A stretch of 64,000 nt of DNA from contig OY969767.1 of assembly GCA_963702895.1 (NCBI GenBank), forward strand, positions 1,376,001 to 1,440,000, read 5' to 3'. The position numbers were made by a program. Positions within the stretch are counted from its first letter, which is position 1, and each line of letters begins with the position of its first letter. Of the stretch, positions 15,001-18,000 are shown one piece after another. The DNA comes from an uncultured Elusimicrobia bacterium (GTDB taxonomy: Bacteria > Elusimicrobiota > Elusimicrobia > 2-01-FULL-59-12).

Positions 15001-18000
15001 CCGCCACCTTCCAAGCGTCATTGCTCAGCGTATGATTTCGGATCGCCTGCGTCAGCGCACGCGCGATCTTTCGCGCCTGGGGTTCTTCCCCATACTCGCG
15101 GAACAACCGCGCGAGCTCCTCTTCGGAGGAATGCGTCAAGACTTGCCAGGCGGTCTGTGTCAAAGACTGGCTCATCCGCATGTCCAGCGGCCCCGGACGC
15201 AGGAAACTAAAGCCCCGGTCCGAGTCCTGGAGCTGCATGGAGGAGAGCCCCAAGTCCAGAAGGATCCCGTCGGCTGTCTCACGACCCCTCTGAGACAGAA
15301 CAGACGGGAACTGGGCATAACTGGCCGCGACCCCTTCGAAGCGTTCGCCAAAACGGGCAAGACGCGTGGTGGCATGGTCCAGGGCCTCGGTGTCCCATTC
15401 AAGGCCCAAGACCTTCATACCCGGGTAGCGCTCCAAGAGCCTTTCGGAATGCCCCCCCAGACCCAACGTCCCATCGATCACCAACGCGGGACCCGGAAAC
15501 GAAAAAAGCTCAACGACCTCCTCCGCCAGGACGGGGACGTGCTCGTGGACCACGCTCACAGCGCCAGTTGCGGTGCGACTTTTTCGAAACTGACTCGCGC
15601 CACTTTGCTGTAACGGCTCCAGTGTTCCCGGGACCACAATTCGACGTGTCGTAAAACCCCCAAAATGACCACCTGGCGCTTCAGGCCGGCATAGTCCTTT
15701 AAATGCTGAGGGATCAGAATCCGGCCTTGCGCATCGATCTCGGCTTCACAGGCCGCGGAAAGCAGCACCCGCTTAAACGCGCGCTCCTGCGCTTTGTCCT
15801 TCAAGGCAAGCGCGTCCAGTTTCGCGGCCAGGTGGTCCCAATATTTTATCGGAAAAAGAAACAAACACCGCTCCAGGCCCTGGGTCAGCACGTAATCGGC
15901 GCCATGGGATTTTTCGCGGAAATGCGACGGAAGAAAAAGCCTGTTTTTGCCGTCCAGGCCGTGCTCGTACTGCCCGAGGTAACGATAGACTCTACTTTCC
16001 ACCACTTTTCCCCACTGGGCTCTAGTATACCCCCCGAGGGAGTTTCTGTCAACGGCCCCGGCGCGTGCCAGAGGTGATCACGCGCCACACGGCAGAAAGG
16101 CCTCCCACCGTGGAGGGTGGAAGGCCTTAAGGAAAGTGAAAGCTGCATTCTATACACCGAATTCTGTACGGCAACGGCAAACGTCGTAAATGGTAAATGG
16201 TGAAGGAGGAATGGTGAAGAGTTCGATAGAACATAACGATTCACCATTTTCTATTTACTATTTACGCCGTCTGCCGTCACCGTCGAGCGCCATTCTTCTG
16301 GGCGACGACCTCGAGTGCGGACGAGCCGGGACCAGCTCTCCTCGAACCCCGGGAACGGCAAACGTCGAAAATAGAAAATGGAAAATAGCACTTTCTCATC
16401 TCTCTATTTTCGATTCTCTATTTTCGCCGTATGCCGTTCCCGGCATCTTGCTCCGGATGGGGTTTGCCTTGCTCCCTTCGTTACCTCAGGGACGGTGAGC
16501 TCTTACCTCGCCATTTCACCCTTACCCGTCACGACCAACTCAGGGTTCAGAGCTCAGAACTCAGAGAGGGCGATGGTTTTATAAGAATCATCCTTATCTC
16601 TGAGCTCTGAGTCCTGAATTCTGAGCTGGCCGTTCCAGGCGGTGTATTTTCTGTGGCACTTTCCGTTGAGAACGGCAAACGTCGTAAATAGTAAATGGTG
16701 AATCGTGAACAGTATTTGCGCATGCTCCTACTCACTATTTTCTATTTACTATTTACGCCGTCTGCCGTTCCCCCCCTGGCTTGCGCCAGGCATCCTGCCC
16801 ATGGAGTTCGGACTTTCCTCCCACCTCCGCTCATTCTTGCGCTTCGCGCGGCGATGAGCTACGGTGGGCAAGCCCCCCCTATAAAAAAGGGGCCTGCCCG
16901 CCATAGCTCTGCCGCAGCGCGTTAGCGCTAAGAGCGGGCGGAGGCGGGCGGCGCTCCGAATGCAGCTTTCAAAGAGCGAACAACAAAAGCTTAAGCAGCC
17001 GGGACTTCTTCGAGATAAACGATGCGCGAGCAGGACTCGCAGCTGACGATCTTATGGCCGCGGCGCAATTCAACGATCAGGTTTTGTGAGACCTTCATGT
17101 GGCAGCCGGAACATTGCCCTTTGAGAATCGGGACCACCGTGGCCCCGCGCTTGCCGTTGCGCAGCGTGGAATACTGGTGGGCCAGGGGCTTCGCGAGGGA
17201 GGCCAGCGCCTGCGCGCGCTCGGCTTGCTTGGCCGCGATGGTTTTTTCGAGCTCTTTGCCCCTGGCTTCCCATTCCAAAATCTGTTGCTGGAGCGTTGTT
17301 TCGTGACCTTGGGAGTCCGCCTCTTTTTGCTTCCAGACTTTGGTCGCCTGGTCGATCTGCTCCATCAGCTGCAAAATTTGGTCTTCGAGCGACGATTTGA
17401 CCTGCTTGGCTTTATCAATCTCGCCAAGCAAGGCTTTATAGGCTTCGTTGGTTTTGATGGCATTCAGGTCCGTCGAATGCTTACGAATGGCCGTTTCCTG
17501 GACGTCCAGGTCCAGCTCCTTCTGCTTCTTCGTGAGCTGAAACTGGTTCAGCTCTTTCTTCGCAGACTCCAGCGCCGTTTTCTCTGCCTGGATCTCCCCC
17601 TTTAAGCCGGCGACCCTGCCAGGGACTGACGCCAGTTCATTTTGAAGCCGGTCCAACTCGAGATCCCTTTCCTGTAGGGACAAGAGCAACTTGATGTCGT
17701 CTTTCATTGAGGGATGTCATTTTATCTTATCACCCGCGCCATCACCAGCCCCGGAAGCGGGGTGGGGAGTTGGAGACATTCCCCAAGTTATGCATAATTC
17801 GCCCATGAGCATGGTCTTTCTGTTCTGGCTGAGCGCCCTTTATACCCTGGCTCTCTTTAGCGCACAGTTCGCCGAATTTCTTACCGCGGGTCGACTTCAC
17901 GTTCAGCTTGCCACAGCCAATGCTCTGTATCTTGCTCTTCTATCAACCTATGTCGGAGGAAAAGAGATCAAACGCTGGACGGTCGGCTTCAAACCCAATG

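Follow-up and report, generated by a model that had tools for sequence, protein, structure and literature searches.

A type-A RNase P RNA gene of 833 nt enlarged by heptad-repeat hairpins in an uncultured Elusimicrobia bacterium

RNase P RNA, a textbook ribozyme that trims tRNA, commonly measures some 330-450 nt in bacteria. The window analysed here, a 64,000-nt stretch of an uncultured Elusimicrobia genome (G000), contains on its minus strand (16970..16138) a single type-A RNase P RNA gene (rnpB) of 833 nt, about double the normal length and the longest among about 220 relatives examined. This raises the question of what the additional sequence is, where in the RNA it sits and whether the enlarged molecule can still serve the cell.

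A cmscan search with RF00010 (123.2 bits at a gathering cut-off of 100 bits, E 2.4e-38; 117.2 bits when the whole genome was searched) reports 642 nt of the gene (16247..16888, minus strand) and inserts that are 99, about 95 and 106 nt long relative to the model, just as the initial annotation had stated. Both gene ends are missed by this call. They had been placed with the help of a 13-bp P1, which gave a length of about 830 nt (16968..16137). We found a perfect 14-nt inverted repeat at this position (16137-16150 / 16958-16971), and our own ends, at a length of 833 nt, are collinear with those of eight family relatives (G003-G010). Rfam under-calls such genes, in this case with 642 or 408 of 833 nt. 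The score of 123 bits is below the 152-204 bits of the relatives, largely because the ends were missed. With the expansions left out, the core is 85.6% identical to that of G003 and 69-80% identical to those of the seven others. The expansions account for about two thirds of the RNA, adding ~560 nt to a conserved core of ~270 nt (Table 1).

Table 1 Features of the rnpB locus, listed in the direction of transcription, with their positions in the window and the basis of each assignment.
Feature	Position	Strand	Basis
Upstream gene, 238 aa, coiled coil and C-terminal CxxC...CxxC zinc ribbon	16991..17707	-	ORF list; ends 20 nt before P1
rnpB entire, type A, 833 nt	16138..16970	-	cmscan RF00010 on inner 642 nt; ends from P1 and collinearity with eight relatives
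P1 5' strand GAAAGCUGCAUUC	16958..16970	-	perfect inverted repeat with 16138-16150
P2 5' strand GAGCGCC	16950..16956	-	pairs with 16285-16291 (GGCGCUC)
Expanded P3, 129 nt, unique sequence without 7-nt periodicity	16821..16949	-	folds as one long irregular hairpin
P4 5' strand and J3/4 GAGGAAAGUCC	16810..16820	-	sequence and cmscan
Insert 1, 101-nt heptad hairpin replacing the P9 tip, (ACGGCRN)2-(WAAATAG)n type	16670..16770	-	99-nt insert in P9 loop of Rfam model
Insert 2, 103-nt heptad hairpin in P12, (CTCAGAG)n type	16531..16633	-	P12 of Rfam model; TRF arrays CTCAGAG/CTCTGAG
Insert 3, 95-nt heptad hairpin in J15/16	16349..16443	-	between P15 5' strand (GAUG) and P16 5' strand
P2 3' strand GGCGCUC	16285..16291	-	cmscan and covariation
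Insert 4, 116-nt heptad hairpin occupying P19	16168..16283	-	between P2 3' and P4 3' strands
P4 3' strand region ACAGAAUUCGG	16157..16167	-	sequence and alignment with relatives
P1 3' strand GAAUGCAGCUUUC	16138..16150	-	pairs with P1 5' strand; collinear with relatives
GC-rich hairpin just past the rnpB 3' end, possible terminator or processing stem	16097..16128	-	read from sequence

The core to which these expansions are attached is intact (P1, P2, P4, P5-P8, P10/11, J11/12, J12/13, P13, P14, P15-P17 and the GGU in the P15/P16 loop), and the molecule is closed by P1 and P2. Every pair of P1 is kept in at least seven of nine aligned sequences (in eight of nine at 12 of the 13 pairs), and two to three pair types occur at 9 of the 13 pairs. 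The seven pairs of P2 are kept in 8-9 of the nine sequences, with up to three pair types. Both strands of the P4 pseudoknot (GAGGAAAGUCC ... ACAGAA-N-CGG) are present, and the conserved strands described previously were recovered, GAGGAAAGTCC at 16810-16820 and ACAGAATTCGG at 16157-16167. The strand ACAGAAUUCGGUGUA of the P4 3' region occurs family-wide, and the one A-G opposition in P4 is common to the whole family. Furthermore, the strands of the specificity domain, namely P10/11, J11/12 (ACAGAAAA), J12/13 (GGGUGAAA) and the P13 and P14 loops, align to RF00010 with high posterior probability, and the P13-14 segment has the family-standard length of 59 nt. The P18 helix is absent, as the alignment with relatives leaves no room for it between the P15 3' strand and J18/2, and it is likewise missing in five of eight relatives (0 nt instead of 24 by cmscan). 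Some type-A lineages lack this dispensable helix, so its absence does not exclude membership in class A.

The genome, one contig at 98% completeness, contains one RF00010 match above the cut-off, and no type B RNase P RNA was found in it. RnpA (G000:C1:86123-86446) is encoded by an intact 152-aa open frame without stops (PF00825, 95.9 bits). Genome searches for protein-only enzymes returned a partial PIN_5/HARP match of only 20 bits, below the cut-off, and no match for PRORP, for which the control also matched nowhere. As the genome has no other RNase P RNA, keeps rnpA intact and yielded no protein-only enzyme, the gene should be functional; it is a real, single-copy and almost certainly essential type-A RNase P RNA gene. 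The gene directly upstream is one that we take to be DUF164/FlgZ-like. In Borrelia, rnpB is described as lying downstream of a flgZ homologue (PMC3372290). The terminator scan did not call the hairpin behind the 3' end, as it has no T-run, and no sigma-70-like promoter was called directly upstream of rnpB.

What, then, is the added sequence? Four palindromes of 95-115 nt had been noted in the gene, and the corresponding hairpins measure 101, 103, 95 and 116 nt. All four fold as long, nearly perfect stems with 34-42 Watson-Crick pairs per insert. TRF detects six period-7 arrays inside rnpB with 2.3-4.3 copies each, compared to 0.16 period-7/8 arrays expected in 833 nt from the density in the genome (536 arrays in 2,724,539 nt). 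The statement that such arrays are absent from the other structural RNAs holds for 16S and tmRNA but not strictly for 23S, which has one weak 2.1-copy array. The arms of inserts 1 and 4, in P9 and P19, are both 97% identical to each other and at most 94% identical to any other locus. The expanded P3 differs in kind: its sequence matches only itself within the genome, and homology links its start and tip with the 78-nt P3 of the metagenomic relative L057. The P3 of other relatives comprises 20-43 nt, the further exceptions being G007 with 126 nt and L056 with 111 nt.

The initial annotation had assigned all inserts to peripheral helices, which is correct for P9, P12 and P19. Insert 3, with 40-nt arms that are 90% complementary, instead interrupts the P15/P16 internal loop on its 5' strand; it adjoins the loop that binds the tRNA 3' end and lies away from any peripheral helix tip. 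In RNase P RNAs of this class, the GGU of this loop pairs with the 3'-CCA of the tRNA, and the A-rich 5' strand of J15/16 helps to position the substrate. On the 3' side, the loop (...CUCGA-GGU-CGUC) is collinear with the relatives, and on the 5' side insert 3 replaces the A-rich strand of G004, G006 and G009.

Throughout the genome, 283 period-7 and 253 period-8 arrays yield 101 rows of convergent pairs; a non-redundant selection of these outside rnpB comprises 64 hairpin loci. Of the 64, 37 lie within stop-free frames of at least 300 aa, in line with the earlier claim that the same kind of repeat invades protein genes. The matches of the (CTCAGAG)n arm at 2180426 and to the array at 1171062-1171679 were reproduced as well. 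Sharing of the repeat families across the genome, as claimed before, is confirmed for the arms, with matches of 88-94% identity at about 12 further loci, but the exact terminal motif ACGGCAnACGKCG is rare (14 half-sites genome-wide, six of them inside rnpB), so that "family found elsewhere" is a loose description. No conserved flanking module was found in the other heptad hairpin families of the genome. The WAAATAG-type "terminal module" was rejected as a separate flanking module, as it is itself two heptads. A scan of genome contigs with the 18-mer of the element root gave 29 matches, with roughly 35 expected by chance, and the sole match in Elusimicrobiota was on a contig of G003. As had been proposed, the excess length of rnpB consists of hairpins of the genome's own 7/8-nt-unit class.

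To place the expansions in the context of the clade, we measured the same segments in 28 relatives with anchors, two pairs of which are duplicates (L044 = L051 and L050 = L052). Expansions were present at P3 in 4 of 17, at P5-9 in 10 of 24, at P12 in 7 of 26, at P13-14 in 8 of 28, at P15-17 in 11 of 28 and at P19 in 7 of 27 measured cases, so that the gene does represent, as had been suggested, a natural map of permissive insertion sites that recur. The relatives' RNase P RNAs span 318-618 nt (467 nt in G003, 371 nt in G009), in agreement with the sizes given before, and L057 reaches 764 nt with six expanded sites and different units. G003 shares one insert only, placed by the alignment in P15/P16, and G009 has none, which had also been reported. 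The homologous J15/16 element is found at the same place in G003, L036, L053 and L056, whereas in G002 this position is taken by a different heptad hairpin and in G001 by a ~30-nt hairpin. G001, which belongs to the same genus, has short helices at P12 (a segment of 14 nt), J15/16 and P19. P19 measures 21-40 nt in the relatives with the exceptions of G006 (86 nt), L036 (82 nt), G008 (79 nt) and L057 (99 nt). Between the J15/16 and P19 elements of L036, 79 of 81 positions agree (97.5%), and the (CTCAGAG)n type, which occupies P12 in G000, is located in P9 in L037 and L057. Tolerance of expansions is clade-wide, and turnover at the shared sites is rapid.

The asymmetry of G.U pairs between the sense and antisense folds was used as an indicator of selection on the RNA. 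The P12 and P19 hairpins of the relatives (G000 left out) contain 36 such pairs in the sense fold and 8 in the antisense fold, which argues for an RNA-level constraint on these hairpins. The four inserts of G000 show no strand bias (12 sense, 11 antisense); nothing in their sequence marks them as retained RNA helices, and they may be young. A larger asymmetry over whole segments (114 sense, 37 antisense) was discarded because native core helices were included. The bias in the relatives is compatible with both retention and excision of the hairpins.

Sequencing runs were searched for the gene, and none of 24 holds more than 0.06 of its words. The contigs obtained from runs X1, X2, X5 and X7 derive mostly from the conserved cores of other organisms, whose short helices account for the skipped inserts. 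A DNA contig from X7 spans insert 4 with exactly one 7-nt unit fewer. A 176-nt RNA contig from X1 flanks insert 3: on one side 72 nt match perfectly, on the other 76 nt match except for 4 differences, and between them the contig has 28 nt where G000 has 89. It was rejected as a processed form and is read as a relative with a short hairpin.

Taken together, we consider it probable that the locus is a functional, single type-A rnpB in which solvent-facing heptad hairpins, copied from existing elements, hang on an intact core. New hairpins would arise when existing ones are copied, also between helices of rnpB itself, and their number of units would change by slippage. Copies would survive only where the helix can point into the solvent, and each insert would fold locally on its own, so that the core could still fold and work with RnpA. 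The copying mechanism, like the activity of rnpB and the transcription of its inserts, is deduced here from sequence comparison. Our preferred guess, held with some reservation, is that the inserts would stay in the mature RNA. Several observations count against this explanation: insert 3 displaces the A-rich J15/16 5' strand of other family members, the G000 inserts show no strand bias, the sequencing runs contain few words of the gene, no promoter was called directly upstream, and the cmscan score is below that of the relatives.

It is conceivable, albeit on balance doubtful, that the hairpins are transcribed and then removed or nicked, for example by RNase III acting on stems of 35-45 bp, and that the working RNA is an assembly of as many as five pieces joined through the core helices. 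The excision of intervening sequences (IVS) from 23S rRNA by RNase III without re-ligation is established (PMC4990558). Every insert presents a long, nearly perfect duplex, and RNase III is encoded in the genome (131 bits, 241-aa frame). M1 RNA can, moreover, be reconstituted from fragments. Cyanobacterial rnpB with STRR repeats, on the other hand, is said to yield full-length active RNA, and if J15/16 or P19 were cut, few pairs would remain to keep the resulting short core strands in place. We regard it as unlikely that the inserts have been co-opted. In that case the enzyme of the clade would now depend on the conserved J15/16 root, and perhaps on those of the other hairpins, as a structural brace or binding site. 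Five sequences belonging to at least two genera show almost no variation in the J15/16 root, the same two non-Watson-Crick positions included, but differ in their inner heptads, and most family members have some hairpin at J15/16; but G001 has only the ~30-nt hairpin, G002 an unrelated one and G009 none, the same root occurs at about 12 loci outside rnpB, and its conservation may reflect recent common descent or a copying signal of the element itself.

Decay of rnpB to an inactive gene, with tRNA 5' ends made otherwise, is very improbable. The cmscan score below that of the relatives and an insert adjoining the substrate-binding loop would fit such a state, but the gene is single-copy with rnpA intact, the genome offered no HARP above threshold, PRORP or type B RNA in its place, all universal strands are present and the core is 85.6% identical to that of G003. 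We give even less credence to an assembly artefact, in which repeat reads would have been wrongly threaded into rnpB. The inserts are indeed repeats, and in the drafts of G001 and G002 contig ends interrupt rnpB, a sign that repeat-swollen rnpB breaks draft assemblies. However, a read pair is longer than any of the inserts, each of which lies exactly at a helix tip with complementary flanks, and homologous inserts occur in independent assemblies and in an unrelated DNA run. As G003, an independent assembly, and three metagenome contigs hold the homologous J15/16 element and the X7 contig covers insert 4, we regard the inserts as real.

If the RNA with its hung-on hairpins works as proposed, it provides a natural map of insertion tolerance over P3, P9, P12, P13/14, J15/16 and P19 and indicates that a 95-nt hairpin can be carried beside the loop for the substrate 3' end. 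The near-identical copies in two of its helices also make rnpB a tractable case for the spread of heptamer-repeat hairpins, a widespread class whose mechanism is not known. More speculatively, and with little confidence, the rnpB of this clade might be a preferred landing pad for mobile heptad hairpins that home to hairpin tips and copy from helix to helix; the enzyme might then be the longest bacterial RNase P RNA, if the expansions are retained, or the first naturally fragmented one, if RNase III cuts them.

The repeats of the cyanobacterial RNAs reportedly sit in P12 and leave the activity of the RNA in place. Short tandemly repeated repetitive (STRR) heptamers are described in rnpB of heterocyst-forming cyanobacteria (Vioque 1997, Nucleic Acids Res 25:3471, cited in PMC2858038). 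In both cases, an otherwise normal type-A RNA has a helix extended by 7-nt tandem units that belong to a genome-wide class and differ among close relatives. The present gene, from Elusimicrobiota, differs in having four such sites (P9, P12, J15/16 and P19), one of them within the P15/P16 loop, in its long P3, in the share of the RNA taken up by expansions (about two thirds) and in copies that move between helices of one gene. A further candidate STRR paper (PMC11251521) was set aside, as the term there denotes the strR marker. Heptameric simple-sequence repeats in convergent (inverted) pairs are also described for Xanthomonas and Nostoc (Rehm et al. 2015, PMC4692102). They too are facing, hairpin-capable 7-nt arrays, abundant in the genome, whose function and spreading mechanism are, as far as that article states, not known, but they are mainly intergenic and G-rich (quadruplex-forming), whereas those described here have A/T-rich or CTCAGAG units with a conserved ACGGC-containing root and lie in a ribozyme gene and in long open frames.

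The IVS of bacterial 23S rRNA, described in helices 25 and 45, likewise are stem-loops of roughly 100 nt that replace a helix tip in an essential structural RNA and come and go among relatives; their excision is demonstrated and they are without heptamer units. Beyond the weak 2.1-copy array, the 23S gene of G000 carries no heptad array. Literature searches, whose coverage left out most subscription papers, returned no stated size record for bacterial RNase P RNA, no multi-site repeat insertions in bacterial rnpB and no description of an Elusimicrobiota RNase P RNA, and the accessible text of the Bcheck paper gives gene counts and no maximum length (PMC2996960). P3, P12, P15-17 and P19 of bacterial RNase P RNA are described as unalignable (PMC4264200), and CPR RNase P RNAs as having large extensions or missing helices (PMC8172020). 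The sites expanded here are these known variable ones, to which this clade adds P9 and P13/14, and what distinguishes the gene from known extensions is its length of 833 nt and the origin of the added sequence in dispersed repeats. Such tolerance is already documented in cyanobacteria, and this rnpB is an extreme example of it.

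The Rfam class-A RNase P RNA model matched the minus strand over 642 nt (cmscan, 123.2 bits; cut-off 100 bits), leaving 99, about 95 and 106 nt as inserts outside the alignment. Neither end of the RNA is placed correctly by this call. A perfect inverted repeat of 13-14 nt (P1) encloses P2, of 7 bp, and both strands of P4, GAGGAAAGUCC and ACAGAAUUCGG. In an E-INS-i alignment of RNase P RNAs, both ends of rnpB, with the sequences GAAAGCUGCAUUCGGAGCGCC (5' end) and ACAGAAUUCGGUGUAUAGAAUGCAGCUUUC (3' end), are collinear across eight same-family genomes. The P1/P2 pairs are retained in at least seven of the nine aligned sequences, and most positions show two or three types of pair. 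On this basis rnpB is 833 nt long, and the extent of about 830 nt proposed in the initial annotation was essentially right.

Table Features of the rnpB region and related loci. Coordinates count along the window unless marked as RNA nt, as G000:C1 (single contig of the source genome) or as positions in an oriented metagenome locus.
Feature	Coordinates	Length	Remarks
rnpB	16970..16138 (-)	833 nt	
Rfam class-A match	16888..16247 (-)	642 nt	
P1 inverted repeat	16958-16971 with 16137-16150	13-14 nt	perfect
Expanded P3	RNA nt 22-150	129 nt	single irregular hairpin of unique sequence
Insert 1	RNA nt 201-301	101 nt	P9 loop
Insert 2	RNA nt 338-440	103 nt	P12
Insert 3	RNA nt 528-622	95 nt	between P15 5' strand GAUG and P16 5' strand
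Insert 4	RNA nt 688-803	116 nt	fills P19, between P2 3' strand and P4 3' strand
Coiled-coil and zinc-ribbon gene	16991-17707 (-)	238 aa	ends 20 nt before rnpB
tRNA	18898-18969 (-)		farther upstream of rnpB
Near-consensus promoter	16024-16052 (-)		TTGACA-17-TATACT, 11/12; between rnpB and mraZ
mraZ	15556-16005		followed by rsmH
23S rRNA	G000:C1:581316-584326	3011 nt	about 86 extra nt against the 2925-position model, without heptad arrays
Tandem array, 120-nt period	G000:C1:1171028-1171686		(CTCAGAG)n/(CTCTGAG)n hairpins; unit is that of the P12 insert
rnpB of metagenome locus L057	367-1130 (oriented locus)	764 nt	

As delimited for the core comparison, the RNA consists of 562 nt of expansion and 271 nt of core. 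This core shares 85.6% identity with that of the same-genus genome G003 and 69-80% with those of seven other family members. Helix names were taken from the Rfam consensus structure line and collinear relatives. All four inserts fold as hairpins of their own, each held by 34-42 Watson-Crick pairs. In the arms of inserts 1, 3 and 4, a pair of ACGGCRN units precedes three or four WAAATAG units; the arms of insert 2 consist of (CTCAGAG)n. The family alignment leaves no room for a P18 helix in this gene, and P18 seems to be absent from the whole family. A cmscan comparison of the relatives gave a P18 of 0 nt, against 24 nt in the model, in five of eight (e.g. loci L008, L009, L025, L026 and L030).

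In seven of the eight family loci, a tRNA is found some 0.8-1.1 kb upstream of rnpB. The gene that ends 20 nt before rnpB has a parallel in Borrelia, where rnpB comes after a flgZ (DUF164) homologue (PMC3372290). The position of rnpB next to a coiled-coil/zinc-ribbon gene and an upstream tRNA may represent a conserved functional link.

Across the source genome, TRF detected 283 period-7 and 253 period-8 arrays that form 101 convergent-pair rows, from which 64 non-redundant hairpin loci outside rnpB were drawn for the hairpin counts. Six period-7 arrays fall within rnpB, compared to 0.16 predicted by genome-wide density. TRF found no heptad arrays in the 16S rRNA (1551 nt) or tmRNA (369 nt) and one weak array of 2.1 copies in the 23S rRNA. 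About 12 further loci match the WAAATAG-type arms with 88-94% identity, and the CTCAGAG arm of insert 2 matches a hairpin at contig position 2180426 and the 120-nt tandem array at 1171062-1171679. Exact copies of the root motif are few: there are 14 half-sites, of which rnpB holds six. In a crude frame test independent of gene calls, stop-free frames of at least 300 aa contained 37 of the 64 hairpin loci and four of nine WAAATAG-type copies; this supports the earlier remark that the same repeat class occurs inside protein genes. Heptad/octad hairpins near G000:C1 750175 and 2405461 lie within stop-free frames of 12,935 and 6,682 codons, and translation in these giant frames would seem to continue across the repeats. 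A search with the small bacterial SRP RNA model RF00169 gave no match in this single-contig, 98% complete genome; its SRP RNA may belong to another type, or an insert may disrupt it as well.

Sequence comparisons point to an origin of the inserts by copying of ready-made elements, not by growth in place. Between the P9 and P19 inserts the arms share 97% identity (37 and 32 nt), every other locus reaching at most 94%; in the metagenome locus L036 the J15/16 and P19 elements agree at 79 of 81 positions, CCGGG flanks included; and the (CTCAGAG)n type occupies P12 here and P9 in the metagenome loci L037 and L057. As judged from its sequence, L036 is a clear-cut example of an element copied from one helix to another within one gene. 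The J15/16 element is taken as the oldest insert; the source genome, G003, L036 and two further metagenome loci (L053 and L056) have its root in common, down to two identical non-Watson-Crick positions, and the inner heptads vary. An unrelated run contains a DNA contig that spans insert 4 and lacks exactly one of the 7-nt units, as slippage predicts.

RNase P RNAs span 318-618 nt in forty relatives and 371-564 nt in same-family genomes, and full-length matches in another 151 genomes sampled from the phylum measure 296-520 nt. Among the same-genus genomes, G003 has only the J15/16 element in common with the source genome, G001 is short at three sites (P12 segment, 14 nt; J15/16 hairpin, about 30 nt; P19, 22 nt), and G002 combines a different J15/16 heptad hairpin with a short P19. 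A scan with the 3' end of the family's rnpB found 24 metagenome contigs, 18 with complete genes: 17 of 387-548 nt (the 540 nt of L036 being set by the P1 anchor only) and that of L057, a second giant RNase P RNA. The latter carries heptad hairpins at P9, P12, J15/16 and P19, of unit types unlike those described here (GACTGAG/TGCTGAG, CTCAGGA), and additionally a P13/14 insert and a 78-nt P3. Tallied over 28 sequences with anchors, including two pairs of duplicate rows, expansions were present at P3 in 4 of 17 measured, at P5-9 in 10 of 24, at P12 in 7 of 26, at P13-14 in 8 of 28, at P15-17 in 11 of 28 and at P19 in 7 of 27. The 833-nt RNA is the longest in this set and is expanded at five of the six sites. 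In the drafts of G001 (C206, L034) and G002 (C173, L035), rnpB is cut by a contig end within P9 and P12. Repeat hairpins probably break short-read assemblies in rnpB, and such genes would therefore be under-reported.

We infer that this rnpB has to work, since it is the sole class-A match over the cut-off, a whole-genome model search gave no class B RNA, rnpA is intact (95.9 bits, 152-aa frame) and no protein-only RNase P passed the threshold. The last point had been left as a gap in the initial annotation: a search of the genome with PIN_5, the family containing the protein-only HARP enzymes, gave only a partial match of 20 bits, and PRORP matched nothing, as did the control for that search.

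None of the public sequencing runs searched contains this rnpB, and the contigs obtained from them carry RNase P RNA cores of other organisms. In the P12 and P19 hairpins of relatives, the sense fold contains 36 G.U pairs compared to 8 in the antisense fold and is the more stable one in eight of nine hairpins. In this small sample of related sequences, the bias suggests that pairing of the transcript is under selection. The four inserts themselves have no such bias (12 sense versus 11 antisense), as expected if they are young. We lean towards retention of the hairpins in the mature RNA. Cutting of the long stems, with partial or full excision of the hairpins as in intervening sequences of 23S rRNA, would be allowed by the RNase III encoded in the genome, and we regard it as rather unlikely.

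The closest precedent is found in heterocyst-forming cyanobacteria, where Vioque in 1997 reportedly described STRR heptamer repeats in rnpB; these are said to be located in P12, with RNA activity retained. Heptamer repeats in inverted pairs are described for Xanthomonas and Nostoc in PMC4692102, large helix extensions of RNase P RNA for CPR bacteria in PMC8172020, and P3, P12, P15-17 and P19 are named in PMC4264200 as unalignable in bacterial and plastid RNase P RNA. The literature searched, with most subscription journals outside it, contained neither multi-site repeat insertion in rnpB nor a stated size record. The initial observation is confirmed and its interpretation largely right: this rnpB is an extreme case of a heptamer-repeat expansion of a kind already known, which goes beyond the routine in how many sites are expanded, in having an insert next to the loop that binds the substrate and in the clear signs of copying from helix to helix.
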